Shown: positions 8,977 through 59,030 of the stretch, in pieces
How the letters are laid out: the number at the start of each line of letters is the position of its first letter
How positions within the stretch are numbered: the stretch's first letter is position 1
Origin: an uncultured virus (IMG/VR IMGVR_UViG_3300031088_000740)
Taxonomy: Duplodnaviria > Heunggongvirae > Uroviricota > Caudoviricetes
Length of the DNA stretch: 64,000 nucleotides
Direction: 5' to 3' (one strand)
IMG/VR virus record: IMGVR_UViG_3300031088_000740
Position numbers and translations under genes: made by a program
Notes under the pieces: model-generated
Told to the model about the DNA's origin: nothing
What the model saw: only the letters and a program-made list of their open reading frames with translations
Database searches by the model: none

Positions 8977-9561
8977 TTACCACCACCACGACATGCTGTG
9001 CCTGTGCTGTGACACATCCATGTCGCTGTCATCTACATCGCCGTTGGCGTTGTACTCTTTTGCGTACCCGATGAGGGTGTCGCGGCTCTTTCTTCTGGAG
9101 CTACCGCTGAGGATTGCTCGGTCTTCCTGTGTGGAGAAGCCGTGGCGGTGCTTGCTTTCCTCAGGTGGCATCTCGGGTGTGCAGGGCAATGTACCGTTGC
9201 GGAATCGCTGTGACTCTTTGGTGTACTTCTGTCCTGCTGTGCACTCATCGGGGTAGACGAAATCGACCACTAACTCGAAGGCTGGGAACCAGCCCCAATC
9301 GTACTCGACTTCCACCCAGTACTCCTTGTAGAGTTCCCTGTGGATTCGAGCCTGTAGTTCTGTTACGCCGTTCTCGTACCCCTTTGACCAATCGAACCCG
9401 ATTCTCGTACCCTTGTTGTGGTAGTAGAGTGGTTCGCCTTCTTCGCTTACCAAGTACTGCCTTTTGTAGACGGTCTTGCCGCAGAGTAGGTGTTTGTGGT
9501 TCGTGAGTGTGCTGTCGTTCTCGCGCACCCAGTATGGTCTATCTTTTCTTGTTCTCGACAT
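8977..9561 (-). CDS. hypothetical protein (MSRTRKDRP..., C-terminal WWW) behind a leader/hairpin
   Basis: ORF; basic N-terminus; alternative start at 9573. Confidence 0.65.
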   Translation of the reverse strand: MSRTRKDRPYWVRENDSTLTNHKHLLCGKTVYKRQYLVSEEGEPLYYHNKGTRIGFDWSKGYENGVTELQARIHRELYKEYWVEVEYDWGWFPAFELVVDFVYPDECTAGQKYTKESQRFRNGTLPCTPEMPPEESKHRHGFSTQEDRAILSGSSRRKSRDTLIGYAKEYNANGDVDDSDMDVSQHRHSMSWWW

Positions 9562-9618
9562 TGCTCGGTCCATTCAGGACCGTAGATGTAGTCAAATCAC
9601 TACTCGGATCTACGGTCT

Positions 9619-9657
9619 CTAATGACCGTAGAAGGTGAGGATGCTGTTCATATTCAT
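9619..9657 (-). CDS. putative leader peptide MNMNSILTFYGH-amber
   Basis: AAGGGA RBS, ATGs at 9657 and 9651, TAG at 9621-9619 inside the hairpin 9566-9628. Confidence 0.55.
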   Translation of the reverse strand: MNMNSILTFYGH

Positions 9658-9683
9658 TCCCTTGGTTGTAAGTTGCTAGTGAA

Positions 9684-9713
9684 ACGATAGCATAGGAAAT
9701 TAGCACCAGTCAA
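9684..9713 (-). promoter_or_regulatory. SigA-type promoter TTGACT-N18-TATCGT (extended TGn)
   Basis: consensus match upstream of the leader peptide. Confidence 0.65.
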
Positions 9714-9726
9714 TACATCCACTTGG

Positions 9727-10014
9727 TTACTCAAACGGATTGACTCTCATGATGCGGCAGTCGCAGCCCCATCTAGTAGCCTTATCAAAAGCAGCTTGGT
9801 AGTCATTCATGACACAATTCGAATGCCAAACGTCCTCTCCTGACTCTTCATCGTATTCATCCCAACCCACGTCGTACAAAGTGCCCACTTCTGCGTCTCT
9901 GGTCTTCCAACCTTCTGATTGAGCCATGCTGAAATACTCCAAAGCGAGAATAGCTATCTCTTCTGGACCAGCACCTTCTATCTCTGCGATGAATTTGGCT
10001 GCAATGACACTCAT
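9727..10014 (-). CDS. hypothetical acidic protein
   Basis: 95 aa; TAATG stop/start coupling with the upstream Pth2-HD gene. Confidence 0.6.
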   Translation of the reverse strand: MSVIAAKFIAEIEGAGPEEIAILALEYFSMAQSEGWKTRDAEVGTLYDVGWDEYDEESGEDVWHSNCVMNDYQAAFDKATRWGCDCRIMRVNPFE

Positions 10015-11036
10015 TACTCGGCACCATTCTCGAACATGACCTTGCAGATAGCCTTGCCTCGCTGATCGAGCCTCTTGTACTTCATCTTGAATCCAGTTGA
10101 CTCAATACCACCGAACATTGCAGCATTGCTAGTCAACTCGGCAAGACCGCTGAGCAGTTGTGCAATGGCAAAGCCAGATTCAACGAACTGGGGTACATCT
10201 ACAGCGGAAAGCAGGTGGATATCCATATCGTGCTCAATGAGGTACGAGACGGATGCATCTGGAGAAGAGAAGGTGTCATTGTAAGTCCTCTGAGATGACT
10301 GTGCATGCATAGGGAAGTGCCTTTTACCCTCATCATCTACTTCGAGAACACTAGGCTTGCCGCAGTCATGTAGCGTGAGGTACCTATCCATGACATACCG
10401 GTCGGGAATGGCGCTGAGAAGCTCTATGCGGTAGTCAGCCAGCCAACTAGGCAAACGCCAGTTACTCGTCTGCGACAGGTCAACCTCGCCCCGTAGGTGA
10501 CTGATTAGAGCGAAGTAGTGTTCACGAACCGAACGACCATGCTGCAATACGTTCTGACCTTCTGTCTGCTCACAATCCATCATTGCGAAAGACATATCGC
10601 GGATCTTTCGCTCGCGCTGGCGAAGCTCAGACTCTCGACTTTCGCTGATGTTCCTACCTGCGCAACGAAGGTTAGAAAGAAGCTTCCTGGTGTTTTCCGA
10701 AGGTCCAAAAGCCAGTGCGGTAATCTCATCACCAAGATCAGGCTCTCTAAACTCTGTGACGAGCATTCCCTTACCGGCAGCAGACTCCTGCAACTCATAG
10801 AGATGTCTTGCGCTATCAGCCTCTAGGACGATAACCGAGTTGGAAGTAAGGTTCCATGTTTTCGCTTCGTCGGGGTTGTTCAAGATGAACTCCGCAACAA
10901 CGTGTGCGATTTGTGCGGTCTGGTATCCGCTGGATAGTTCTTTATGTGTAACGAGGTACAGCTTGTCTTTGTGTTCGAGTGATGCAGGCTCCACGATAGG
11001 AGCGGGGATGATGGTGTTGTTGGAAACCTAAGTCAT
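10014..11036 (-). CDS. Pth2-like peptidyl-tRNA hydrolase domain fused to an HD phosphohydrolase; in-frame TAG at codon 3
   Basis: KLYLVTHKELSSGYQTAQIAH...FREPDLGDEITALA (PTH2-like); HDCGKP...HFPMHA...HDMDIH (HD). AGAAAGAG RBS precedes ATG-ACT-TAG at 11036, 14 codons in frame upstream of the GTG at 10994. Confidence 0.8.
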
Positions 11037-11066
11037 GATGACTCTTTCTGTTTGATGTGAGAGACA

Positions 11067-11095
11067 ACAGTAGCATACGCAACAACATCAGTCAA
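11067..11095 (-). promoter_or_regulatory. SigA-type promoter TTGACT-N17-TACTGT
   Basis: consensus match with TGn extension, 30 nt upstream of ATG 11036. Confidence 0.7.
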
Positions 11096-11138
11096 GACAA
11101 AATCATTGCCGACACACCTCTCGTGATACCTTTACCAG

Positions 11139-11840
11139 ATGTATAGCATTAGGGGTCAATATGACATTGATCAGGTCAAAGTAGCTGTTGAAAATTCTCG
11201 TAGCTACAGCGCAGCATTAAGAGTTTTGGGGTATGAGCCTCATGGTAAAAGACATTACGAGTTCACAGCGCTTGTGAAGGAGCTTGGTATCAATACAGAT
11301 CACTTCTCTCGTTTTGGACCTCGCGCTGCTCCAAAAGCCACGGAAGAACTACTTGTTGAAAATAGCCCTCGTAGGGTTACTGCCCATAGATTGAGAAGGG
11401 CGCTTATTGAGATAGGAAGAGAGGTCAGATGTGCGCACTGTAAAGTTCGAGACACATACAACAATCGCCCAATCACCTTAGAAATAGACCACATCAATGA
11501 AAATCCGCTCGACAACAGAAGAGAGAATCTGAGGTTTCTCTGCCCCAATTGTCACTCGCAAATAACAGCATCCAATAACGACAGTAGACGGGCTAGATGT
11601 GCTTGTGGAGCTAACAAGAGTAGAGATTCAACCCAATGTCACAGATGTCACTATTTGGCTGTACGAAGCGGAATTATCAAAATCAGTTCGCATCGAGACA
11701 AGATCGAATGGCCGGAGCAAAGAGAGCTAGTGCAGATGATTGCAGAGAGCAACTACTCTGAGACTAGCCGCAACCTAGGTGTATCGGTCGCCGCCATCAA
11801 GAAGAGACTTGCCAAGATGAGTCAATTACATCCAGAATAA
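11139..11840 (+). CDS. HNH homing endonuclease
   Basis: CAHC...LEIDHINENPLDNRRENLRFLCPNCHSQ; extra Cys cluster and C-terminal HTH; lies next to the tRNA. Confidence 0.9.
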   Translation: MYSIRGQYDIDQVKVAVENSRSYSAALRVLGYEPHGKRHYEFTALVKELGINTDHFSRFGPRAAPKATEELLVENSPRRVTAHRLRRALIEIGREVRCAHCKVRDTYNNRPITLEIDHINENPLDNRRENLRFLCPNCHSQITASNNDSRRARCACGANKSRDSTQCHRCHYLAVRSGIIKISSHRDKIEWPEQRELVQMIAESNYSETSRNLGVSVAAIKKRLAKMSQLHPE

Positions 11841-11844
11841 TCGG

Positions 11845-11917
11845 TGCCTTTGACGGGATTTGAACCCGCGTACGCAAGATTTTAGAGATCTCCGCTCAGC
11901 CGCTGAGCTACAAAGGC
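11845..11917 (-). tRNA. tRNA with anticodon CUA (amber suppressor)
   Basis: acceptor GCCUUUG/CAAAGGC plus A73, D arm GCUC/GAGC, anticodon arm GAGAU-CUCUAAA-AUCUU, T arm GCGGG-UUCAAAU-CCCGU; anticodon at 11885-11883; CCA not fully encoded (CCG). Confidence 0.92.
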
Positions 11918-11936
11918 TTGTTGTTGTTTCGAGTAA

Positions 11937-11965
11937 AGCCTAGCACGTCATTTTCGGATATGCAA
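11937..11965 (-). promoter_or_regulatory. SigA-type promoter of the tRNA, TTGCAT-N17-TAGGCT
   Basis: consensus-like with TGn, about 20 nt upstream of the tRNA 5' end. Confidence 0.6.
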
Positions 11966-12019
11966 CTCGAAAACTAGATGTCGCACTAGCCACCTATACT
12001 GATTCAAAGGAGTTCAACT

Positions 12020-12451
12020 ATGTCATCGCCATTAGTACCCAAACAAGGCATCGATTCACGAGGTAGAGCGTATACCCGAATGGTCAAGGTGCCGGGTGGC
12101 AGTAGATCATCTGTCCCGCTTTCCGCGCCGAAAGATATCTATGCTTTGAGTAATGAAGATTACAGCGAGAGGTATCTTGGCGTTTCCAATTTGGAAAGAC
12201 AAGGTTCAGACCAACTCGATTTCCACGATGTCAGTGTCACCTCTATTAGGTCAATGCTCAACGCAGTAGCCAAAGATCACACAGGCAAGGAGCTATCCAA
12301 AGATGCCCTTGGCAAAATTATTCACGAGCACCTTTGGGACGCAGACGGAGATGATCTAGAAACGCGAAACTCAGATCACCTTGACTTCCATGACGTATTC
12401 GTCAGCGGTCTTAAGCGTGCCATCGAGAGCGCAAAAGTAGTGCAGAGGTAA
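12020..12451 (+). CDS. divergent DKNG-tag protein with an internal duplication
   Basis: PKQGIDSRGRAYTRMVK N-terminus; LE-R-SD-LDFHDV-V repeated twice; AAAGGAG RBS. Confidence 0.65.
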   Translation: MSSPLVPKQGIDSRGRAYTRMVKVPGGSRSSVPLSAPKDIYALSNEDYSERYLGVSNLERQGSDQLDFHDVSVTSIRSMLNAVAKDHTGKELSKDALGKIIHEHLWDADGDDLETRNSDHLDFHDVFVSGLKRAIESAKVVQR

Positions 12452-12724
12452 TTAGCTGTTCGTCGCGTATCCGTTAGCTCGCACGGATACAGAACGAGGG
12501 ATGTCGATGTGGTTGATGGCATCGATGATGTCTTCGTCAGAGCTACGAATGATCACCCTACGGCGCATGCTTCTGACACCACTGTCGTCCGTAATGGCAT
12601 CGAGTGCCTTGAACTCAACCGAAGTCTCCGGAGACTCGATAGCAAGCATGTCCTCAACAACCTTATCGAGGTTCTTGTGATCGGCTGATGCGAAGGTGAA
12701 GGTGTATTTGTTGATTTCCGTCAT
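12452..12724 (-). CDS. ribosomal protein S10/NusE-like protein lacking the long loop
   Basis: KYTFTFASADHKNLDKVVEDM and RRRVIIRSSDEDIIDAINHIDIPRSVSV resemble the S10 termini; TACAAT-N6-ATG. Confidence 0.5.
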   Translation of the reverse strand: MTEINKYTFTFASADHKNLDKVVEDMLAIESPETSVEFKALDAITDDSGVRSMRRRVIIRSSDEDIIDAINHIDIPRSVSVRANGYATNS

Positions 12725-12817
12725 GACTGGATTGTACAGTGAACCGTTCGATAAGGCAAGACTGGGTACAGCAACGGGGTGGCACTCCGAAAAGTACCAC
12801 CCCGTTATCTACTACCT

Positions 12818-13585
12818 CTATCGACGAAGAGCGAAGATTCTTACGAACTCAACATAGAGCCATACGACAGTGACGAGGATGCCGAAACCAGCCATCCACT
12901 CATACTTCTGAGCAATTCTGTTGTTCGCTCCGTTCTTGACGAACTCGAAGTCAAGAACTAGTGAGTACGAAGCCATGATGACCGCAAAGATGCCAATGAT
13001 AATACCCACCGGAATACCCGCAATCTCCATGCCGCGAATGCCGAAGGGGGTGTCAACGATACCTGTGATGCTGAGACCGAAGTTCAACAGAGAGAATGCA
13101 AGGTACGACACCATAGCCACCATAAAGACCTTGGTTGCTCTTCGTGAAGAACGAATCTTGCCGCTAGCAAATAGAGCCAGAACCACAGCAACGGTCACGA
13201 GGGTCGCTAGTACAGCCTGAACGATAACCCCAGGATACCTGCCTTCAGCAATAGCCGAGAAGCCTCCCAGACCAACGCCCTCAAACACCGCGTAGAGCAT
13301 AATCAGGGGAACAGATGGCTCCTTCTTGAATGCGTTCACAAGACCTAGGACAAGCGCAATCACCAGGGCAGGAATAGCAAGCTGAGGGATGAACCATCCA
13401 ACAGCGGCGGTGAGGACGACGATAGCGAACAAAGCGCTTGTCTTGATGAGCGTTGACTCAACCGTCATGACTCCCGAACCACCTGCGAGTGCAGGGGGAG
13501 GGTATGCGCCCAGAAGGTTCGGATTGCGTTCCGACTGGTTCGTTTGGTTGAACAACTTGTTGTTACGTAAAACAGGATTAGCCAT
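12818..13585 (-). CDS. Bax inhibitor-1/YccA family membrane protein
   Basis: about 7 TM; LVLDFEFV...EWMAGFGILVTVVWLYVEFVR C-terminal signature. Confidence 0.9.
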   Translation of the reverse strand: MANPVLRNNKLFNQTNQSERNPNLLGAYPPPALAGGSGVMTVESTLIKTSALFAIVVLTAAVGWFIPQLAIPALVIALVLGLVNAFKKEPSVPLIMLYAVFEGVGLGGFSAIAEGRYPGVIVQAVLATLVTVAVVLALFASGKIRSSRRATKVFMVAMVSYLAFSLLNFGLSITGIVDTPFGIRGMEIAGIPVGIIIGIFAVIMASYSLVLDFEFVKNGANNRIAQKYEWMAGFGILVTVVWLYVEFVRIFALRR

Positions 13586-17433: not shown

Positions 17434-18123
17434 TCAGATTAGATGAGCAACCACAGTCAATGTGTTCGGCGCAACTTCGGTAAATCCGGCATCACGAACC
17501 TCTACACCCCAAGACTCCCTGCTCTCAAAAGACACAAGAGTAATGACGGGTCTATCTAGTTCCCATCGGAAAAGCTGTTCTGCGCTTGCTGACATGATTG
17601 CCAACTGCACAGCGTGACCAACTTGCGCCATTGACTTACCAGTGGTCATTTCGACTTCTGGATTGAGAGCAATGAGAATCTCTGCCCGGTCGTCCGATTC
17701 AATCGGTCTACTCGGTAGATCAAGACCCTGAACCTGTAGTTTCTTTACGGCAGGATTCTGATCGGTTACAAGGGTCGGTGGCATAACCCACACGACGGCA
17801 TCTCCGTAAGAACCGATGACACCAGGAACATCAGTCACTGCATCCCATGCAGAAGCTCTTGCTCTCTTAGCAAGCTTCCGAATGCGACCATCAAGCCACA
17901 GAGAGGTAGCCTCGTGCCAGTCTCCACCGTCACGAATCTCTTCGCTAAGGAAGTAGTCGCGAATGGCAGCAGCGGTTGCGAGCAAGGCATCTTCGTGAGA
18001 AAGGTCTAGACTCTTCTCCAGATCGAGAACGATAGGAAGCGCCCTGATCTCAGACTCGTCTCTATCCCATTCAGGGACGGAGGAAACAAGACCAGTGAGA
18101 TCGGAAAAAGACATAGCGCTCAT
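17434..18123 (-). CDS. Pth2-family peptidyl-tRNA hydrolase (actinobacterial type)
   Basis: LNPEVEMTTGKSMAQVGHA...VRDAGFTEVAPNTLTV; alternative start at 18114. Confidence 0.85.
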   Translation of the reverse strand: MSAMSFSDLTGLVSSVPEWDRDESEIRALPIVLDLEKSLDLSHEDALLATAAAIRDYFLSEEIRDGGDWHEATSLWLDGRIRKLAKRARASAWDAVTDVPGVIGSYGDAVVWVMPPTLVTDQNPAVKKLQVQGLDLPSRPIESDDRAEILIALNPEVEMTTGKSMAQVGHAVQLAIMSASAEQLFRWELDRPVITLVSFESRESWGVEVRDAGFTEVAPNTLTVVAHLI

Positions 18124-18157
18124 GCTACTAGATACATGAGCGCTATGTCTACCTTAC

Positions 18158-18710: not shown

Positions 18711-19451
18711 TTAGCTGACAGGTTCGGACAGTGAGACCTTATGCTTCCCTCCGGGAGCTTCGTATGAGGAATCAAGCATGAGTCGCCAAGAATGGACTGA
18801 ACGATCATATTCAGCATCACGCAGAATTCTGTCCATGCCGGGAAGGTGTGCAGCACCCCATACGAGGACGACATCGCGGTCAGTATCAAGGGCAGCAGAA
18901 ACAGCAAAGCGATTGCGCTGGTGCAGGATTCCCTCACTGGAAATGATACCCCTGGTGAAGGGAATTAGGTTGCCCAGAGGCGCGATGATGTGCATGTTCC
19001 GAAGACTCCATAGTGCCTTGCGAGGGCTAATGGTGATTTCTTCTGCTGACACCTGACCGAGAACTTTAAGTGTCTTCTGGCTCATCTTCTGTACAACATC
19101 GAGCTTGGTCACATCATGCTTCTCCCACCTGGGAGCGTTGGCAAATGCGTCAGTCTGATAAGTCAGTCCCGTAAGATTGGCAATCTTCTTTCCCAACATC
19201 ATGAGTGATGTGAGCGTGTTGAGGCTGGCACGCTCATAGTCTGTTCTACCTACTGCTTCCTGAACACCTTCAAGGTGAATTACGGCACCCTGGCTTTCCT
19301 TCTCTTTCAAGAAGTCGATGAGTTCCGACCAAGATGCGTCTGTCGCTGCATGCATGACACCAACTGTCGTGATGCGCTTGCCTGAGATACGGTGAGTATA
19401 CTCCTGCACACGAGCTTCTAGACCTCTGGCTGTCTTACGAATGGCTCTCAA
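18711..19451 (-). CDS. hypothetical protein (possible TraB/GumN-like)
   Basis: GVMH, LEG, RN and WGAAHLPG motifs. Confidence 0.5.
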   Translation of the reverse strand: MRAIRKTARGLEARVQEYTHRISGKRITTVGVMHAATDASWSELIDFLKEKESQGAVIHLEGVQEAVGRTDYERASLNTLTSLMMLGKKIANLTGLTYQTDAFANAPRWEKHDVTKLDVVQKMSQKTLKVLGQVSAEEITISPRKALWSLRNMHIIAPLGNLIPFTRGIISSEGILHQRNRFAVSAALDTDRDVVLVWGAAHLPGMDRILRDAEYDRSVHSWRLMLDSSYEAPGGKHKVSLSEPVS

Positions 19452-21444: not shown

Positions 21445-22779
21445 TTAGGACTCAAACTCAACCAAGTACTTGATGTTGACCTGCTCGGTGTTCCACACGA
21501 TAGCCTCGTGGTTTCTCACGCCACCGTAACCCGGACGAACGTTGATGGAGTTGAACGGCTTGCCAAACTTGTTCTTCTCGGTACGGGCGTAGCGAGGGTA
21601 GTTCTTGTCGTAGTTGCGACCCGTGCGGTACTCAGAACCCATCGCGACATCAGCAAGGAACATGAAGCAGCTATTGTCACGCGAGCCAGACCAGTAGCCG
21701 TGCGAGTAACCAAGGCTCTTAGTGCTGTCGTTGGAGAGATAGATACCATCTCCGAACATGCGACCTGCAATGACGTACTGACCACCAGTGGTCGGCGGGA
21801 CGAATAGCCCCCGACGAAGAATGGAAAGGATGTTGAAGCTACGTGAGCCGTGCCAAAGCTGCTGGACGTTACCAATCTCCTTGGCAATCTCGTCAAATCG
21901 CTTCTGACCTTCCTCGTCGGACACAGTGAAGATACGCTTGACCTTCAGGTAGCCCCAAGAGTGGTGGGCGTTCTTGGCATCCTGGTACTTCTTGACGATG
22001 CCCTTGTACTCATCAGATTCAGGGTCAAGAACAGCGACCTTGTACTTGAAGAGACGCTCGTACTTGGTGGCGATATCGTCGTCAGCAGTCGTTGCCTTCT
22101 TCTCCGCATCCTTGTTCGCCTCCGCAAACTTGATGGAGTCGGCAAGCTGGTCCAGAAGCTCGCGCTGCTTCTGGTACGAGTCAGCACCATCGAAGAAGGT
22201 CTCGTACCAGCCACGCTTAGCGGGAACCTTCTGAGGTACCAACTTGAGGTAGTTCTGCAACGCAGGAAGGAAGTCCGCGTCCGAGACCTTCAAGCCTTCC
22301 AGCTTGTCGATGAGGCGGCGAGCATCGTTGATGGACGACAGGCTGATGAGTCCGAGAGGGGTGCTCATCCGACCGGAATCAGCATCCACCTTGATGAGTC
22401 CGCCAGAAGCCTCGATGATCTCGTGGCGGTTGATGCGAACCAAGCGTTCAATGAGAGACTCAAGCTCAGGGTTGCCGTGCTCACCCACAAGAACAGTCTT
22501 TGCAACCTCCGTGAGGTGCGACTGATCGCCAGTCTCCTTTGCCTTGGTGGTAGTCACCACTTCGGTGCGCTCGTAACCCTTGCGCATCTTGCCGCGAATG
22601 ATTCGCTCGAAGGCAACAGGACCGCCAGACTGGTTGCTGTATGCACCAGAACCACCCACGCGACCGTAGTGGATCTTGATGGCACCAGTGCTAAACAGGG
22701 TGGCATGATAGAACTTGTTGTGGTTGTCGATTCCATCAACAAGGATGAGCATTTCTTCGCGCTCGATTACATCAGCCAT
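21445..22779 (-). CDS. WGR-domain PARP-family ADP-ribosyltransferase
   Basis: NKFY...HYGRVG...KMRKGY (WGR); LWHGS, GRMFGDGIYLS, KSLGY, NHEAIVW (H-Y-E triad). Confidence 0.9.
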   Translation of the reverse strand: MADVIEREEMLILVDGIDNHNKFYHATLFSTGAIKIHYGRVGGSGAYSNQSGGPVAFERIIRGKMRKGYERTEVVTTTKAKETGDQSHLTEVAKTVLVGEHGNPELESLIERLVRINRHEIIEASGGLIKVDADSGRMSTPLGLISLSSINDARRLIDKLEGLKVSDADFLPALQNYLKLVPQKVPAKRGWYETFFDGADSYQKQRELLDQLADSIKFAEANKDAEKKATTADDDIATKYERLFKYKVAVLDPESDEYKGIVKKYQDAKNAHHSWGYLKVKRIFTVSDEEGQKRFDEIAKEIGNVQQLWHGSRSFNILSILRRGLFVPPTTGGQYVIAGRMFGDGIYLSNDSTKSLGYSHGYWSGSRDNSCFMFLADVAMGSEYRTGRNYDKNYPRYARTEKNKFGKPFNSINVRPGYGGVRNHEAIVWNTEQVNIKYLVEFES

Positions 22780-31879: not shown

Positions 31880-32518
31880 TTACCCGATGCCGTTCAGTGC
31901 GAAGTCATCACGGTGCCGCCAGTCCGCCGAAGTGGTGACGTGACCTGCCCGGACGAACTTGGCAACCTTGCTACGGAAGTCCTTCTCCGCAATCGTTCCA
32001 GCATCTCGCAGAACAAAGCCCTCGGAAACGGTAGTGTCCTTCTGCTTCTCCCATGCAGCCACAGCCTCATCGAAGTCATCGCCCCGGTACAGGGTGGGAA
32101 CAACCGGAAGACCAAGCTCAGCAGCAAACTCCTCAGTGAAGTCCCAATCAAGCAGTTCATCCTTGTCATCCCAGACACCAAAGACCATGTAGAAACCCGG
32201 TAGGGAGTCATAGCCGACGCTACGACGGGCGTAGAGGCTCTCACCGGACACTCGCCAGCCTTCGGGAATCTGAAAGCGCACAGAAGCCCACAGCGCCTTA
32301 GCGGGGGTATCCCACGAGTGGGTTCCCGAGTCAAGCGAACGAGCGAAGAAGTGGTTACGAGTCATGGTGACGTTTCCGCCGTCCATCTTCTCGGTCACCA
32401 AGAACTCACTCGCGCTACGGAGCGTGTCAAGACCTGACTTGGTGATGAACTTGTCATCGGACGTAGCACCCGGGGAAGTCGGCAGGTGTGCCGTACGGGG
32501 ATACTTTTTGTTCTCCAT
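31880..32518 (-). CDS. ATP-dependent RNA ligase (Rnl2-like adenylyltransferase domain)
   Basis: KYPRTAHL, TEKMDG (motif I), GES, EGFVLR, AKFVR. Confidence 0.85.
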   Translation of the reverse strand: MENKKYPRTAHLPTSPGATSDDKFITKSGLDTLRSASEFLVTEKMDGGNVTMTRNHFFARSLDSGTHSWDTPAKALWASVRFQIPEGWRVSGESLYARRSVGYDSLPGFYMVFGVWDDKDELLDWDFTEEFAAELGLPVVPTLYRGDDFDEAVAAWEKQKDTTVSEGFVLRDAGTIAEKDFRSKVAKFVRAGHVTTSADWRHRDDFALNGIG

Positions 32519-39803: not shown

Positions 39804-40706
39804 ATGCCACTAAACCCTAACACCCAACCAAAGCAGATCGTTGATGTCAATGGTCATCTCACGACCCGTCACGTTTCGACCAACAAGACAACCAAGGGTG
39901 TTGACCGAGTGGCAAGCATCGTTCCTGTCAAGCCTTCTCTCGATAGAAGCAAGTACTCATCCCCGCTAGACAGAACCATTCAAAACACTCCGCTCAAGGA
40001 GATGGGACCGGCTCTTCTTTCTGCCGCAATTCAGCACAAATTCCCATCAGAACGTGTGGGCGATGCTATTGCGATGGCATCCTACCTTCACCGTAAGCAG
40101 ACCAGAGGATCGCGCGGTAGTCAGCCCCGTGATGAGTACATTTCCCACCCACTACGAAACTCTTTGCGCGCCATTCGGTTCAACTGTGAATCCGAGAACA
40201 TCGCTATCGCCAACATCATGCACGACACGGTGGAAGACTGCACTGATGAGATGATTGCTATTGAGTACCCCGAGCTTGATATCAGTGACTGGACTCAGCA
40301 GGAAAAGCAAGACTTCGCCATTGACGAAATCATCCTCCCGGCGTTCGGTGAGAGGGTAGCAAAAACGGTCAAGGGCGTTACCAACGCTCCTAAGAAGCCT
40401 GGTATCAGCAAGTTGCAGAGCCAGCAGGAGTACCGCGAAAAGGTTCTCAAAGCAATTGAAGATGAGGACGTTTTCATCGTCAAGACTTTCGACTGGCTCG
40501 ATAACGCTGGCTCCCTACATCACCATGTTGGCGAGAAGCCGGGTATGGTCAAAAGCATGGCTGGTAAGTACCGACCGCTAGCGCAAGCATTCATCGAGAG
40601 ATTGAAGACTGTCGAACAGATTCCTGAGCACAGCAGGGCGCTCTTGGAGATGAAGATTCGTGAGGTCGAAGCTCGTCTTATCGAGTTCGAAGCTATGGAA
40701 CTCTAA
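39804..40706 (+). CDS. DKNG-tag protein with RelA/SpoT-type HD hydrolase (Mesh1/SAH-like)
   Basis: KQIVDVNGHLTTRH tag; HRKQTR...YISHPL...MHDTVED...FGERVA..VKGVT...VKTFDWLDN. Confidence 0.85.
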   Translation: MPLNPNTQPKQIVDVNGHLTTRHVSTNKTTKGVDRVASIVPVKPSLDRSKYSSPLDRTIQNTPLKEMGPALLSAAIQHKFPSERVGDAIAMASYLHRKQTRGSRGSQPRDEYISHPLRNSLRAIRFNCESENIAIANIMHDTVEDCTDEMIAIEYPELDISDWTQQEKQDFAIDEIILPAFGERVAKTVKGVTNAPKKPGISKLQSQQEYREKVLKAIEDEDVFIVKTFDWLDNAGSLHHHVGEKPGMVKSMAGKYRPLAQAFIERLKTVEQIPEHSRALLEMKIREVEARLIEFEAMEL

Positions 40707-40762
40707 TTGACTCGAATGCCCTCCTTCTGATAGTGTTTGTGTATCAACCAGAAGGAGGGCAT
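40707..40762 (+). promoter_or_regulatory. promoter TTGACT-N18-TAGTGT embedded in a 14-bp hairpin that sequesters the downstream RBS
   Basis: arms 40716-40729 and 40749-40762; right arm contains AAGGAGG. Confidence 0.7.
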
Positions 40763-40766
40763 CGTC

Positions 40767-41561
40767 ATGTCAACACAAGAAATCAGCTTGTCGGGCATCG
40801 ACGACCTTTCGTTGATCCTTCACACTGTCTACGGTTCTGAAGTTCACCACATCAACTACGGTGATGCATCAGACCGAGATGAAGTCGCTATCTACGTCCC
40901 TACGATTGACGAAGCACTGAGCCTTCAGTCTCCGATTGAACTGTATCGGTATCGCTCTGCCTATGACCGTAGAGGCGAAGAGGACTACCATACTCAACCT
41001 CGTAGTCAGAAAGGCGATCTGGACTTCAACGTTTACGAAGTGAGGCATTGGTCTCGCATTGCTCTAACGGGTAGCCCATTCATCCTCGCACCACTGTTTG
41101 TTGACGAAGAGTGGATTATCTCGGAGACAGATATGGGCGCGGAGCTTCGAGAGAACTGGGATCGGTTCATGTCTCGAAGCGTCATCACCAAGTCAATTGG
41201 TTACATGAAGTCACAGTACGAGCGGATGATGGGCATTCGAAGCAACAGGGTATCTCGACCTGAGCTTGTCGATGCTCATGGTTACGATACGAAGTTCGCG
41301 GCTCACATGATTCGCATTGGTATCCAAGCTCGCAAGGTGGTTGCTGGTAAGGGTATCGAAATTCCTGTCAATCCTGTCGATGCTGCAAAGATTCGATCTG
41401 TCCGAGCAGGTGAGGTAGAGCAAGATGAGGTGGTCGCTTGGTATCACGCACTCTACGCTGAGCTTTCTTCTGCACTAGATGAAGAAAGGTACTTTGTTCC
41501 CGAGGAACCGGATTACGCTTGGGTGAATGACTGGGCAGTAAGAGCCATCCGCAATCAGTGA
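40767..41561 (+). CDS. predicted nucleotidyltransferase (Nuc-transf/YcgL-like)
   Basis: GSEVH...SDRD; GYDTKFAAHMIR...IRSVRAG. Confidence 0.8.
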   Translation: MSTQEISLSGIDDLSLILHTVYGSEVHHINYGDASDRDEVAIYVPTIDEALSLQSPIELYRYRSAYDRRGEEDYHTQPRSQKGDLDFNVYEVRHWSRIALTGSPFILAPLFVDEEWIISETDMGAELRENWDRFMSRSVITKSIGYMKSQYERMMGIRSNRVSRPELVDAHGYDTKFAAHMIRIGIQARKVVAGKGIEIPVNPVDAAKIRSVRAGEVEQDEVVAWYHALYAELSSALDEERYFVPEEPDYAWVNDWAVRAIRNQ

Positions 41562-49588: not shown

Positions 49589-50116
49589 ATGAAGCGTTCA
49601 TCGGCAACTAACACAAGCCGCCATTTGGCGTACCTGCTTCGTCACGAGCCTTCTTTCGTCAACGAGTTTGGGTGGGCAACTATCTCGGCAGCAGAGAGCG
49701 CATTGAGCGCACACGCTGGTGGCACTGTCACTCGCGGCGACATTAAGAAGATCGTTGCCGAGGACTCCAAGGGGCGTTACGAGATTCAGGGCGAGCGTAT
49801 CCGCGCTGTTCAGGGTCATTCGCACCCTGTCAACCTTGGATGGGTTTCTACGACCCCGCCCGAGACTCTTCTTCACGGAACGGTCGAGAAGTTCGCTGGC
49901 GCTATCCTTCGCGAGGGTTTGAAGCCTCAGTCTAGGACGCACGTCCACATGTCGGAGACGGTTGAGACTGCCGTTCAGGTCGGTTCACGTCGGGGAGAGG
50001 CAGTGATTCTCACCATCAACGCTGCACAAGCTGCGGCAGAGGGCGTAGCCTTTTTCCAGTCCGCCAACGGTGTCTGGCTTGCTCAGCACGTCCCAGCTAA
50101 GTTCATCAGCCGCTAA
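49589..50116 (+). CDS. kptA: RNA 2'-phosphotransferase (Tpt1/KptA)
   Basis: LLRH, KGRY, IRAVQGHS, HGT, RTHVH, VGSRR, NGVWL. Confidence 0.92.
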   Translation: MKRSSATNTSRHLAYLLRHEPSFVNEFGWATISAAESALSAHAGGTVTRGDIKKIVAEDSKGRYEIQGERIRAVQGHSHPVNLGWVSTTPPETLLHGTVEKFAGAILREGLKPQSRTHVHMSETVETAVQVGSRRGEAVILTINAAQAAAEGVAFFQSANGVWLAQHVPAKFISR

Positions 50117-54189: not shown

Positions 54190-56217
54190 TTAGTAAAGAG
54201 CCGCCTGAACTCCAAACGGAACCTTGCGTCCGGTTCTCTTGGAGCCTTGAGGCTTCTGCTTCTGCCCTCTACCCTGACCCCTTCCTTGCCCTCTGTTCTG
54301 GGAAGGGTTTTGCCTGAGTCGGTAGCACTTCTGGCAGATATCGAACTGCAATGGTGCAGGCTGGCTGCATTCCTTGCAAGGGTGGTCCGAGACAACCGCA
54401 GAACTCGAACCAAGGTGCTTTTCAATCGCAACATTGAGAGCCAACTCCGTCGCTGAAATCTGCTCCTTGGTGAGAAGACCGAGGTTGTCGAAGATGACGG
54501 AGAACATCTTGAACTCTCCCAGCTTGGCACTTGCCGCTTCGAGGTCTACAAGGGTTGTGTTCTCTGTAGCTACCGGCTTTTCCACCAACTCGAAGAATGC
54601 TTCTGACATACGGTTGGATTCAAGTCTTGCTTCGGCATCCAGTGCCAGCCAGTACAGGGAAGGCTCTACCACTCCGTTACGAGCATCGAATGCGCCAGTC
54701 ATCAGTCTCCACACATCGAGGATGTTGATATCTAGATGACCGTCAAGCTGCTTGCGAGGAACGAGGTCGAAATCTTCGGTCCATAGCTTGCTCGGAGCAT
54801 CTACAAACTCCAAAACAGCCTTGAGGTTGTTGAGTGCAGTGGTCATCGTGGAAGCAGAAAGGTTCCTGTCCTTTACTCGCTGCTGAACACGACGCTTCCA
54901 TACCTCAATGGCGTATGTGAGCTTGACTGCCTCGGCAGTACCACCATCGGGGTCTAGTCCTAGATCTCCAAAGCGGGGGAACAACGAAGCGGTTTCTAGT
55001 TCAAGGTCAGTTGGCTTCAAACCGGCAGCCGCCTTGATTCCATTTCGCACAACTGCGTAGTCCGGAGTGAGCCAGGTAACACCGCTAGCGGCATAGACCC
55101 GACCTTCATTCGAAAGACCGAATCGACCAGCACGACCAGCAATCTGAGCAGCCTCCCAGACGCGCAGTGACCTACGCTCAAATCCATCGAACTTGCTTGT
55201 CTCAGCGAACACTACGTTATCGATGGGGAGGTTGATACCGTGACCGATAACGTCTGTCGTCACCATGATGTCAATTTCACCACGCTCGTAAGCGTCAAGC
55301 TGCTGCTTGCGCGCTGACAGTGGCAATGCGCCGTACAAGACACCTACGTTGAGACCAGTCTTACGGATCTCGTGCGCGATAGCGTACACACCGCGTCGAG
55401 AGAAACAGACGACCGCGCTACGTGGCGGGATCTTGTGAAGGGGCATCTGTCCACCCCAGCGTAGAGGTGTCTTACGCTGGAAGGTTTCTTCCTCAATGAC
55501 CCATGCATCGGCAACAAGCTTCTTGATGAGAGGAACAGCCTCAGCGGCAGTGGCAACGTACATGTTGGCGTACTTACCGCCGATAAGGATTCGGCTCCAT
55601 ACGTGACCTCGGTGTGGGTCGGTAAGCCAATGAGCTTCGTCGATGAGGATAGACGCACCTTCGTCGGGTGCCATCTCCATTGTGGTTGCCAGAAGCTTTG
55701 CGTCAGGGTTGATCGCTTCTTCCCCGGTAATGAATCCTACGTACTCTTCACCGAATCGGTCGCACATCTTCTTGTAGACCTCATAAGCCAGCAGACGCAG
55801 CGGAGCGGCATAGACATGCACTGACTCACGGTTCGTCTCAAAGTCGCTGAAAAGGCGCTGTAGCCCGTTGTAGGTCTTACCTGAGTTGGTCGCACCAATG
55901 AACAACTTGACGCATTCGACGGCATTCTTCCTATCGCGGACAAATACCTGTACTCCATCAGCAATAGGCTTGAGGGCTGCATGGGTATTCTGCTTGCGCA
56001 ATGCCGTGTCTGCCTTGACCTTTTTAGAGGCGGAGTAATCTCGTGGCTCAGTGTTCACCGCCTTAGCGCGTGATGGTGACTGTGAACGCTTCTGACCGTA
56101 TTTCTGAACCAAGGATTTTCGCCTTCTGTCGGTGTTAGGTACATCATCGCACACCCCTCTGACACCAATCCCAACTTGAGATTTGTTTACCCAAGCGATA
56201 CAATTCGCACATGACAA
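54190..56217 (-). CDS. SUV3-like SF2 helicase (start uncertain)
   Basis: GATNSGKT, APLRLLA, DEAH, YGALP, TDVIGHGINL, QIAGRAGRFG; C-terminal CxxC...CxxC. Confidence 0.88.
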   Translation of the reverse strand: MSCANCIAWVNKSQVGIGVRGVCDDVPNTDRRRKSLVQKYGQKRSQSPSRAKAVNTEPRDYSASKKVKADTALRKQNTHAALKPIADGVQVFVRDRKNAVECVKLFIGATNSGKTYNGLQRLFSDFETNRESVHVYAAPLRLLAYEVYKKMCDRFGEEYVGFITGEEAINPDAKLLATTMEMAPDEGASILIDEAHWLTDPHRGHVWSRILIGGKYANMYVATAAEAVPLIKKLVADAWVIEEETFQRKTPLRWGGQMPLHKIPPRSAVVCFSRRGVYAIAHEIRKTGLNVGVLYGALPLSARKQQLDAYERGEIDIMVTTDVIGHGINLPIDNVVFAETSKFDGFERRSLRVWEAAQIAGRAGRFGLSNEGRVYAASGVTWLTPDYAVVRNGIKAAAGLKPTDLELETASLFPRFGDLGLDPDGGTAEAVKLTYAIEVWKRRVQQRVKDRNLSASTMTTALNNLKAVLEFVDAPSKLWTEDFDLVPRKQLDGHLDINILDVWRLMTGAFDARNGVVEPSLYWLALDAEARLESNRMSEAFFELVEKPVATENTTLVDLEAASAKLGEFKMFSVIFDNLGLLTKEQISATELALNVAIEKHLGSSSAVVSDHPCKECSQPAPLQFDICQKCYRLRQNPSQNRGQGRGQGRGQKQKPQGSKRTGRKVPFGVQAALY

Positions 56218-57203: not shown

Positions 57204-57255
57204 ACAATCTCAAATCTTTTCGTCACACTGACTAAAACTCTGCTACCATGTGCAC

Positions 57256-57921
57256 ATGAGCGCAGTTATCGAGATTTTCAACATCGTGGTATTCACAGCC
57301 TTCGGAGCGCCAGTAACGCTTCTGGAGCTATTCGGATTCATCACTGGTGGACTTTGTGTCTGGGCGGTGGCGAAGCAGTACAAGTGTAATTGGTACGTCG
57401 GTGCGGCAAATGCAGCGGCATTCATCTTCCTGTTCTTCGGAGTCGGTCTTTACGCAGACGCATTCCTCCAGGTCGTCTTCCTCGTGATGAGCTTCTACGG
57501 CATCTACTCTTGGACATTCGGAGGCAAGGGAACCGCCAAGAACGCACTTCCCGTCAGGCGAGTGGTACCCAGGGAGTTGTTCATCTTGATTCCACTCACT
57601 ATCGCCGCCACGGTAGGTGTAGCCCACCTACTGAGAGCAGAGACCGACAGCAACGTGTACTGGTTTGATGGTGCCGTGCTTACCCTCTCGATTCTGGCAA
57701 CCTACGGACAGACCAAGAAGATCGTCGAAAGCTGGTACGTCTGGATTGTTGTGGACCTCATCTCCATCCCGCTCTACTTCTACAAGGGACTCACACTCAC
57801 AGCGTTGCTCTACGGAGTGTTCCTCACGCTCTGCTTCATCGGTCTTGTCAAGTGGAGAAGTGAGTTGACCCCCAAGAAGACCATCACCGACACCACACGA
57901 ATTGCAGAGGTAGCAGCATGA
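57256..57921 (+). CDS. pnuC: nicotinamide riboside transporter
   Basis: multi-TM; LYAD..LQ, D...LSILA, ESWYVWIVVDLISIPLY; TACCAT-N6-ATG at 57256. Confidence 0.92.
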   Translation: MSAVIEIFNIVVFTAFGAPVTLLELFGFITGGLCVWAVAKQYKCNWYVGAANAAAFIFLFFGVGLYADAFLQVVFLVMSFYGIYSWTFGGKGTAKNALPVRRVVPRELFILIPLTIAATVGVAHLLRAETDSNVYWFDGAVLTLSILATYGQTKKIVESWYVWIVVDLISIPLYFYKGLTLTALLYGVFLTLCFIGLVKWRSELTPKKTITDTTRIAEVAA

Positions 57922-59030
57922 GCAAGCAGTACAGACACGCGGTAGTCATCGGTAAGTTCTACCCGCCTCATGTGGGTCACCTCCACCTGATTCAGGAAGC
58001 AGCGAGGGTGGCAGAGAAGGTTAGCGTCGTAGTGTACGGAAGTCGCTACTACAACATTCCCGCCCAAACGAGAGTCGAGTGGATGTACGCTGACCTCGAA
58101 GTACCCGATAACAACGTCACGCTCTACCCCGCCGAGTCGGATATCTATGAGGACTACAACAGCGACATCATCTGGGATGCGCACATGTCCCACTTGCGCG
58201 CTTTCCTTCGAGTACGCGGGCTAGAAGGTGCTTTCGATGTCGTAGTTGCAAGTGAAGAGTATGCCAATGTCATGGCGCGAGACTACTTCGGTGGCATTTC
58301 CGCACATGTTGTCGATACCGAGAGGGTTGCTTTCCCCATCTCTGGGACGGCTTTCAGGAACGATGCGGTCGCCAACTGGAACTACCTAATACCCTCTGCA
58401 CGCCGTGCGCTGATGCCTAGGGTCATTGTTCTGGGTTCCGAGTCCACAGGCACCACGACGCTCTCCAAGGCGCTCAGCGAGCACTACAACGCCCGTTGGG
58501 TTGCGGAATACGGCGCTCAGTACACCTTTGACCGACTGGCTGAGGGGCAAGCAGCAGACCACAACTTCGGAATGGACGATATCGTCTGGGATAACAAGGC
58601 GTTCGCAGATATCGCGAAGAAGCAAACACAACTCGAAGACGAAGCGGTATTGGCAACTGATGGTCGTTTCCCGCTCTTCATTGGTGACACAGATGCCTTT
58701 GCTACGGCACTATGGGAGAAGCGTTACACGAGCGGCATTTCCACCTACGAATCGACCACAAGAGGTTATGCCAGCAACCTCCCCAAGCGCGACCTCTACA
58801 TCATTACAGACCATCAAGGGGTTGCCTTTGAGCAAAACGGAATCCGCGATGGAGAGCACATTCGAGAAGACATGACGACAGACTTCGAAGACGCTCTGGC
58901 TATAATCAATGCGTCTTGGATCAAGATTCGAGGCACTCATGATGAACGAATGGACGCGGCAACACACATGATCGATGGCATCATTGCTACCGCATTTGAG
59001 TTCACTGACCCAAAGAGGTTCTCGCGCTAG
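57918..59030 (+). CDS. nadR: NadR-type NMN adenylyltransferase / ribosylnicotinamide kinase
   Basis: GKFYPPHVGH (HxGH), ISGT, P-loop GSESTGTTT, EYG, DTD; ATGA coupled to pnuC. Confidence 0.9.
   Translation: MSKQYRHAVVIGKFYPPHVGHLHLIQEAARVAEKVSVVVYGSRYYNIPAQTRVEWMYADLEVPDNNVTLYPAESDIYEDYNSDIIWDAHMSHLRAFLRVRGLEGAFDVVVASEEYANVMARDYFGGISAHVVDTERVAFPISGTAFRNDAVANWNYLIPSARRALMPRVIVLGSESTGTTTLSKALSEHYNARWVAEYGAQYTFDRLAEGQAADHNFGMDDIVWDNKAFADIAKKQTQLEDEAVLATDGRFPLFIGDTDAFATALWEKRYTSGISTYESTTRGYASNLPKRDLYIITDHQGVAFEQNGIRDGEHIREDMTTDFEDALAIINASWIKIRGTHDERMDAATHMIDGIIATAFEFTDPKRFSR

Follow-up and report, generated by a model that had tools for sequence, protein, structure and literature searches.

The gene on the minus strand at 10014-11036 of a 64,000-nucleotide stretch of viral DNA (called the window here; IMG/VR record IMGVR_UViG_3300031088_000740, an uncultured member of the Caudoviricetes) raises the question of how a conserved protein can be produced from a reading frame which meets an amber stop at its third codon. 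The frame encodes a Pth2-like domain followed by an HD-like domain, and a tRNA gene with the anticodon CUA is located upstream of it. Based on sequence comparisons, we consider it likely that the gene represents a translational gate, whose expression would depend on this suppressor tRNA.

An earlier note on this DNA had described a ribosome-binding site, a 5-nt spacer, and ATG ACT TAG in frame with the Pth2-like open reading frame (ORF), and the letters bear this out: the Shine-Dalgarno (SD)-like element AGAAAGAG (11049-11042, minus strand, as for all positions of the gene) is followed by the spacer TCATC (11041-11037), ATG (11036-11034), ACT (11033-11031), and TAG (11030-11028). We propose this ATG as the true start and the TAG as the gate. 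The codons 3' of the TAG are GTT TCC AAC AAC ACC ATC ATC CCC GCT CCT ATC GTG (10994) GAG CCT, and the frame stays open until the TAA at 10016-10014, corresponding to 340 codons plus stop with the TAG read through. The ORF call with translation table 11 begins only at GTG 10994 (10014-10994, 326 amino acids). As also noted earlier, this GTG has no ribosome-binding site; the bases preceding it (CCCGCTCCTATC) are not purine-rich and contain no SD sequence. Purine-rich runs comparable to AGAAAGAG, with a presumed role in ribosome binding, precede the leader ATG in the related loci L002-L008. The stretch from the TAG to the GTG encodes residues (..IIPAPIVEPAS) that are conserved in relatives with synonymous changes, while the GTG itself is not conserved and its equivalent is absent in L003-L008, which argues against GTG 10994 as the real start; as judged from these alignments, it is probably a gene-caller artefact. 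Together with the tRNA(CUA) upstream, this supports the earlier assertion that amber read-through is required for the full-length protein. Right behind the TAG, GTT TCC AAC AAC in the window and GTA TCT AAC AAC in L004 both encode V-S-N-N, and because the changes are synonymous, we read this segment as protein in frame. A protein search retrieved 184 homologues and a metagenome scan 80 loci; homologues with longer N-termini align to the read-through extension of the window protein (MT-X-VSNNTIIPAPIVEPAS), with ..IP..(I/P)..EP.S as a common motif. The N-terminus predicted after read-through is (M)T-X-VSNNTIIPAPIVEPASLEHK, with X as the residue at the amber codon.

Contigs from three further DNA runs of as many studies (X3, X6, and X7; 95-99% alike) contain the TAG unchanged: they cover 11005-11071 and show no difference at 11028-11036, which contradicts the assembly error considered in the earlier note. 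X3 and X7 lack 3 nt at 11015 with the frame kept, which is weak evidence at a tandem trinucleotide (AAC AAC). The sole RNA contig (X18; 161 nt, 10835-10995) lies inside the gene, short of the leader, and is uninformative on starts or read-through. Of the promoter proposed previously, TTGACT-N17-TACTGT, the hexamers are present at the given spacing (TTGACT at 11095-11090, TACTGT at 11072-11067, minus strand), but a promoter role did not find support, as the site was not listed in a consensus promoter scan of 9900-12100; since its -10 hexamer matches at only three of six positions, the element at 11067-11095 is best described as promoter-like and weak.

The only tRNA detected by ARAGORN in the window is located at 11843-11917, on the same strand as the Pth2-like gene and upstream of it. 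It carries the anticodon of an amber suppressor in a loop reading CU-CUA-AA (Rfam), scores 58.5 bits with the general Rfam tRNA model, and adopts a canonical cloverleaf as its minimum free energy structure. The ARAGORN label "tRNA-Pyl" reflects the anticodon alone, and no Pyl genes were found among the window ORFs scanned (40 by Pfam, 39 by PHROGs) in a search that was not exhaustive. All 18 CUA tRNAs compared have short variable arms, and the discriminator base is A in most of them. As the class II tRNAs for Ser, Leu, and Tyr are characterized by long variable arms, an origin from any of these is disfavoured, which does not by itself name the inserted residue. In the phages HyRo, RsoM2USA, and Kaldavass, the nearest paralogues are just 66-74% alike and of mixed isotypes.

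The same pairing recurs in close relatives. Conservation of the leader in homologs, a matter raised in the earlier note, proved complete among the eight close full-length relatives (L002-L009; 54-69% identity), all of which contain an ATG equivalent to that at 11034-11036 and an in-frame TAG shortly thereafter. Seven of them read ATG ACN TAG, with ACT, ACG, ACC, and ACA all represented, and L006 reads ATG ACA TTC ACC TAG. Each also has, no further than about 1 kb away, a tRNA whose loop reads CUCUAAA/CUA; six of these tRNAs were found by ARAGORN, and those of L004 and L005, which the program mis-called or missed, were recovered by Rfam and folding. In L002, L003, L006, and L007, only 41-53 nt separate the end of the tRNA from the leader ATG. 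At the corresponding site, 40-43 nt before the ATG, L004 and L005 contain tRNA-like elements with collapsed or odd anticodon arms (L004:2503-2572 and L005:4884-4957; Rfam 50 and 40 bits), which may be kept as processing signals. The same-strand spacing of 40-53 nt in L002-L007 suggests that tRNA and gene may be co-transcribed. In L004 and L005, a gene of an unknown family (L004:1840-2475, L005:4189-4848) is located between the true tRNA(CUA) and the decayed tRNA-like element. It starts with ATG, eight codons, and TAG GTW AGC CGC; a canonical start follows only after a further 15-19 codons, and the gene may be a second amber-gated one. An Rfam search at gathering thresholds for ribozymes or other RNA families between tRNA and gene, conducted on 12 loci, returned tRNAs only.

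The gap between tRNA and gene is filled in the window by an HNH endonuclease-like ORF on the opposite strand (11139-11840, plus strand; Pfam HNH_3 and HNH, both under cut-off), which ends 2 nt from the 3' end of the tRNA. No HNH-type ORF occurs between the tRNA or tRNA-like element and the leader ATG in L002-L007. Since the relatives have the tRNA close to the leader without such an ORF, the window looks like their cassette after being split, and the ORF is probably a homing-endonuclease insertion. Scans of viral contigs with the protein and with alignment A1 of the family yielded no relative, a scan of genome contigs only one distant locus matching the C-terminal domain, and a megablast search of 9500-13500 against phage records no match.

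A wider census shows how regularly the stop accompanies the gene family. Of 26 loci with a match reaching the N-terminus, two are cut by the contig end, and all remaining 24 have a TAG shortly after an ATG; the TAG is the first in-frame upstream stop in 21 of them and is included in the match itself in the other three (L004, L005, and L007). Family ORFs were recognised by a profile of alignment A1 and compared with all other ORFs of at least 100 amino acids in the same 82 sources. An ATG with the first in-frame TAG following within 1-9 codons precedes 44 of 74 family ORFs vs. 27 of the 594 control ORFs, whose TAA and TGA leaders number 27 and 21, respectively. Where the Pth2 domain comes first, 23 of 25 ORFs have an ATG and a TAG at most nine codons apart (exceptions: L049:3919 and L039:5509). 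HD-like-only genes without a Pth2 part carry the same leader, and in the three loci with the domains on separate genes (L013, L022, and L035) both genes are preceded by one. In the 41 leaders analysed, ATG and TAG enclose 0 to 8 sense codons, with none in 5 cases, one in 18, two in 6, three in 8, and more in 4, and the last sense codon before the TAG varies. The position of the TAG is fixed at codons 2-10 across phyla and not scattered. The first ATG, GTG, or TTG lies beyond the first profile-aligned residue in 36 of the 41 leaders, and as far as 121 codons on in L023, L024, L027, L056, and L057. Immediately 3' of the TAG, 28 of the 41 leaders have an A, 11 a G, 2 a C, and none a T; A or G after an amber codon is said to favour suppression, as reportedly found by Bossi and by Miller and Albertini. 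CUA is also the commonest anticodon around these genes, with 14 of 71 tRNAs in 517 kb of family loci vs. five for the next commonest one.

The bases following the leader stop are alike in non-homologous N-termini, reading TAG ATT GAT AAA or TAG ATT AAC AAA (e.g., in L061, L063, L068, L071, L073, and L053) and TGA ATT AAT in the Agrobacterium phage Atu_ph07. The similarity may reflect a read-through context at the level of the RNA instead of a conserved protein sequence.

Several cultured phages contain the leader together with the tRNA. Tenacibaculum phage pT24 has ATG AAA TAG, with an annotated coding sequence (CDS) that begins 32 codons into the match, and a CUA tRNA 2.5 kb upstream, one of three tRNAs by ARAGORN (four by Rfam). 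Acinetobacter phage ME3 has ATG ACT TAG and an annotated "anticodon CTA" tRNA about 420 nt upstream. In Salmonella phage Arash, ATG CTG TAG precedes a "peptidyl-tRNA hydrolase" annotated at only 50 amino acids (gp84c), with a CUA tRNA nearby, while RsoM2USA combines ATG AAA TCG TAG before an HD-like gene with one CUA tRNA. ORF364 of XacN1, which encodes the HD-like and Pth2-like parts in reverse order, is preceded by ATG AAG TAG, five codons before the annotated start, and this phage has two CUA tRNAs. Erwinia phage Kaldavass has ATG GCT CAC TAG and a CUA tRNA 2.3 kb away. Its HD-like gene contains an additional internal in-frame TAG (..DTG-TAG-GDP..; L087, 1603-1605) and is annotated as several small CDSs; matches in Rak2-like phages are likewise spread over 2-4 annotated fragments. 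The cluster C mycobacteriophages HyRo and Myrna have (A/G)TG TAG GTG and an adjacent CUA tRNA. In public records, this tRNA is unannotated in HyRo (L084/L120, 92250-92323) and named "tRNA-Ser" in Myrna (L139:2966-3037), and that of Arash is named "tRNA-Phe" (L088:2473-2547). Two huge uncultured phages also have the leader. In one of them, the 635-kb LR745206 (L085, 3001-4549), the homologue is interrupted, giving two tblastn pieces in different frames and a span about 500 nt longer than the gene, for which an inserted element or a frameshift may be responsible.

The type of the stop appears to follow that of the suppressor. Atu_ph07 has a tRNA(UCA); of the 30 tRNAs checked, none has the anticodon CUA or UUA. 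One of its three PTH2-like genes reads AAAGG-N7-ATG ATT GGC GAA CAC TTT TGA ATT AAT, and a canonical start follows only 32 codons later, within the domain. This opal leader with an opal suppressor suggests, as one case, that the leader stop tracks the phage suppressor type. Both XacN1 and Atu_ph07 also have high-scoring canonical Pth2 genes, and these have normal starts. In Prevotella phage Lak-B8 (L142), a Pth2 homologue led by ATG AAT ATC TAA (2417-2428) has a tRNA(UUA) some 500 nt upstream (1862-1934), but as canonical starts follow the TAA, this potential ochre version of the gate is ambiguous.

In the proposed gate, ribosomes would start at ATG 11036, and RF1 would compete with the phage tRNA(CUA) at the UAG in codon 3. 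Termination by RF1 would yield a dipeptide only, and production of the 340-residue enzyme would require that the tRNA(CUA) be transcribed, processed, aminoacylated, and able to decode the UAG. Because the stop sits at codons 2-10, the aborted product would be a tiny peptide throughout the family, and the A or G after the stop would provide a context favouring suppression. The phage suppressor tRNA would then have, in this gene, a natural target dedicated to it, and together the two would work as a translational AND gate or a coherent feed-forward loop. Gating might guard against toxicity, coordinate the enzyme in time with the phage tRNA set, or provide feedback on suppression; we favour the idea that a potentially harmful tRNA-end-processing enzyme is withheld before expression of the phage tRNA set and then made at low dose. 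A more far-reaching idea, which we put forward tentatively and think doubtful, is that the suppressor tRNAs of standard-code phages are mainly one half of a cassette, with a tRNA-end enzyme of the Pth2-like/HD-like type and its cognate 5' stop as the other half of a self-sensing circuit. The amount of enzyme would then scale with suppressor activity, and by acting in turn on the suppressor or on peptidyl- or aminoacyl-tRNAs, the enzyme may keep read-through in homeostasis, with the cassette spread over phages of Actinobacteria, Proteobacteria, and Bacteroidota. Such a cassette may also be a standing "seed" for genome-wide stop-codon reassignment in phages.

Several observations weigh against the gate. 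Only 21 of the 47 ORFs in which the C-terminal domain comes first have both ATG and TAG, the rest being divided into 5 with TAG but no ATG, 7 with ATG and either TGA or TAA, and 14 with TGA or TAA and no ATG. In LR745206, no CUA tRNA was found among 58 tRNAs examined, an incomplete set, and the Pth2 genes of T4-like Aeromonas phages have ordinary starts. HyRo and Myrna have to be counted as ambiguous, because the spacing from their SD is better suited to the GTG that immediately follows the TAG. In the window, the tRNA is separated from the gene by 806 nt holding the oppositely oriented HNH gene, which makes their co-transcription uncertain. A start at GTG 10994, which is in frame in the window and in L002, would retain the entire Pth2 domain, and the rare start codon ATT follows the TAG in 23 of 41 leaders (ATA, likewise a rare start codon, in 3), which leaves room for a restart in the AT-rich clades. 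Finally, read-through itself at the leader TAG is something we infer from the pattern of conservation.

Some of these points also speak for an upstream mini-ORF without read-through, where ribosomes would terminate at the TAG and resume either at GTG 10994 or at some non-canonical codon right behind the stop, so that the mini-ORF merely tunes initiation. This model is served by the in-frame GTG, the frequent ATT and ATA, and the well-spaced SD of HyRo and Myrna, but we regard it as unlikely: the codon after the TAG is GTT or GTA in the window clade, neither being a start codon, the GTG lacks an SD and is mostly missing in the relatives, and nearly all leaders have no canonical start ahead of the conserved domain. 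It would also leave unexplained the near-exclusive use of TAG, the excess of neighbouring CUA tRNAs, and the opal leader with its opal suppressor in Atu_ph07. The earlier note had instead read ATG ACT TAG as a minigene of the lambda bar type that generates the substrate of its own product; in such a model, fMet-Thr-tRNA released by drop-off would be the substrate of the Pth2 enzyme encoded behind it, forming a self-feeding or self-sensing loop. Short peptidyl-tRNAs are indeed prone to drop-off, the leader is a two-sense-codon ORF with an SD, and all leaders are short, exactly one sense codon between ATG and TAG being the most frequent arrangement. However, leader length and last sense codon vary, the four Thr codons of the close relatives involve different isoacceptors, HD-like-only genes share the leader, the conserved protein frame continues directly past the stop, and Pth activity is unproven with the canonical Lys motif replaced (see below). 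The conserved element is the stop itself, TAG with CUA tRNAs and TGA with a UCA suppressor, rather than a minigene, and we consider a minigene feeding its own enzyme quite improbable.

It is still less probable that part of the genome uses a code of the code 15 type with TAG as sense codon, the leader TAG being an ordinary codon of a recoded block. Such a code would account for the presence of the suppressor tRNA and for the N-termini of four homologues on contigs of 1.4-3.7 kb (P0015, P0027, P0030, and P0071), which begin with MTQ and may be the output of a gene caller set to TAG=Q. The loci L056 and L057 gain 7-9% coverage with TAG as sense. The loci of relatives are, like the window, not recoded. 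As tested over the 64 kb of phage genome in the window, the coverage of a greedy gene set rises from 91.0% with code 11 to only 91.7% with TAG as sense, less than with TGA as sense (92.3%), and 18 of 83 genes terminate with TAG; the window uses the standard code. The fixed position of the TAG also argues against recoding, as do the other ATG..TAG leaders in the window: those upstream of 18711-19451 and 54190-56217, tried as further amber-led genes, were judged to be chance occurrences, because good ribosome-binding sites precede the genes' own TTG starts. A nonsense mutation, pseudogene, or sequencing error, for which nothing speaks apart from the stop at codon 3 as such, is hardly credible with the TAG identical in contigs of three other studies and conserved in dozens of relatives at 34-69% identity, with the rest of the gene intact. 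We therefore retain the suppressor-dependent gate as the likely reading.

The protein behind the gate consists of two domains. The Pth2-like domain (10659-10973, minus strand; residues ~8-112 of the 326-residue numbering) matches Pfam PTH2 (PF01981) with 26.0 bits (gathering cut-off 23, residues 13-101), and profile searches against the PDB retrieve 1q7s, 1wn2, 1rzw, and 2zv3 (Bit1 and archaeal Pth2) at E values of ~1e-5. An AF2 model based on 60 sequences (pLDDT 96.7, pTM 0.92) shows the Pth2 fold, with 3erj_A (TM-score normalised to the target 0.77, rmsd 2.4, 112 columns) and 1wn2_A (Z 12.9, rmsd 2.3, 106 residues aligned) as matches. Catalysis by Pth2, as known from the S. solfataricus enzyme, involves the Lys of a KGK motif, an Asp, and a Thr. 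In the HMM alignment, KGK of 1wn2 (GkgK of 1q7s) is opposite S-G-Y-Q with G37, Y38, and Q39 invariant, and D86 and T92 are invariant within the segment FREPD..T. The catalytic Lys thus appears to be lost, and since S-G-Y-Q takes the place of the canonical KGK, Pth activity of the protein is not assured. The C-terminal all-helical HD-like domain (10035-10628, minus strand; residues ~123-320) has no Pfam family match at E≤5 for residues 140-326, including any HD family profile, and no sequence match in the PDB. Its best structural match by VIA-align is 3wfo_A, a "tRNA processing enzyme" (Z 13.5), which we take to be a class II CCA-adding enzyme. More than 15 chains of the HD superfamily follow at Z 6.5-8.8 (GppA/PPX, the HD domain of GlyRS-beta, PhnZ, HD-GYP, and PgpH), a range of middling values which helical folds also reach by chance. 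H152, H209-D210, H230, D256, and H260 are at least 90% conserved among the 60 sequences in a pattern H...HD...D and would be suited to bind metal. We infer from these features that the protein is a putative hydrolase or phosphohydrolase directed at tRNA 3' ends.

As judged by Pfam and PHROGs, the window encodes DUF2510, DUF732, BaxI_1, PARP, Hsp20, RNA ligase, Tpt1, RlaP plus HD_4, PnuC, and NMN adenylyltransferase, and many ORFs have no family match. The stretch recurs in contigs of phyllosphere, leaf-litter, plant, and food metagenomes, and gene content and habitats suggest that it is probably part of a large standard-code phage of plant-associated Actinobacteria. A toolkit for tRNA/RNA repair and NAD metabolism is distributed over 31880-32518, 39804-41561, 49589-50116, 21445-22779, and 57250-59030, its members being an RNA ligase, an HD_4 protein with an RlaP nucleotidyltransferase, a Tpt1 RNA 2'-phosphotransferase, a PARP with a WGR domain, and PnuC with NMN adenylyltransferase. 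A second PTH2-like ORF (17434-18123, minus strand; 229 amino acids) has its domain at the C-terminus and no stop leader; a perfect 16-bp inverted repeat (AGACATAGCGCTCATG...CATGAGCGCTATGTCT, 18109-18150) spans its start codon. The BaxI_1 gene (12818-13585) ends with TAG and has two further in-frame TAGs in the next three codons (codons 255, 257, and 258; 12810-12820, minus strand), which may serve as backup against suppression. The 18 TAG-ending genes of the window as a group do not show a significant adaptation to the suppressor, as their next in-frame stop follows after a median of 9 codons (maximum 29) vs. 16 for genes ending with TAA (p=0.13).

If the gate exists as proposed, it provides a concrete target for the suppressor tRNAs of large standard-code phages and a natural case of gene-specific translation gated by a tRNA, and it suggests how a suppressor tRNA can stay under selection before any wider recoding. 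It also exposes annotation errors, with family genes truncated or split in pT24, Arash (gp84c), Kaldavass, and XacN1 (ORF364) and CUA tRNAs left unannotated or misnamed, and the compact leader and tRNA could serve as parts for synthetic biology. Full-text literature searches, covering the main texts of papers, returned no paper in which a suppressor tRNA is linked to an amber-led gene of the Pth2 or HD type.

Among known systems, pyrrolysine decoding shares with the proposed gate the reading of UAG by a CUA tRNA, a likeness which for the window tRNA extends to its label. The bar minigenes of phage lambda resemble the leader in consisting of an SD, a two-codon ORF, and a stop, and in their link to the biology of peptidyl-tRNA hydrolase: they cause peptidyl-tRNA drop-off, which Pth clears, and are toxic in Pth-deficient hosts. 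However, they are free-standing, whereas the mini-ORF of the window is in frame and continuous with a conserved protein, and its stop type appears to track the suppressor tRNA of the phage. Closer in mechanism are the recoded phages (crAss-like, Lak, and others), which read TAG as Gln by means of phage suppressor tRNAs (Borges et al., 10.1101/2021.08.26.457843). As would be the case here, a phage tRNA(CUA) decodes in-frame UAG codons of phage genes in a host with the standard code, and the same preprint, in whose text the words "peptidyl" and "hydrolase" do not occur, proposes the suppressor tRNA as a regulator of expression timing. While many genes are recoded in those phages, with low coding density in code 11, the window has the standard code and a single amber at codon 3 of a gene accompanied by the tRNA gene. 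XacN1 (PMC5852040), RsoM2USA (PMC8504454), and Atu_ph07 (PMC6102473) are more similar in this respect, as large standard-code phages with one or two suppressor tRNAs as well as tRNA-processing and Pth genes. As far as the main accounts of these phages go, the suppressor targets are stated or implied to be open and none is named; for XacN1, reading through 18 terminal ambers is reported to have given nothing (PMC5852040). We propose the 5' amber (opal in Atu_ph07) of the Pth2-like/HD-like gene as this target. The closest counterpart in design is synthetic, namely the "leak dampener", a coherent feed-forward loop in which, as outlined by its authors, a suppressor tRNA and a nonsense-bearing target are switched on together, so that output needs both and leak is suppressed (Ho et al., 2020, PMC7969014). 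The phage pair resembles it because the tRNA is located directly upstream of the gene in the relatives, and the essential parts, an early nonsense codon in the target and the cognate suppressor tRNA, are found in the same genome. The leak dampener was engineered in E. coli with a ribozyme-processed tRNA, whereas the phage arrangement is natural and conserved, with possible co-transcription suggested by the gene spacing of the relatives.

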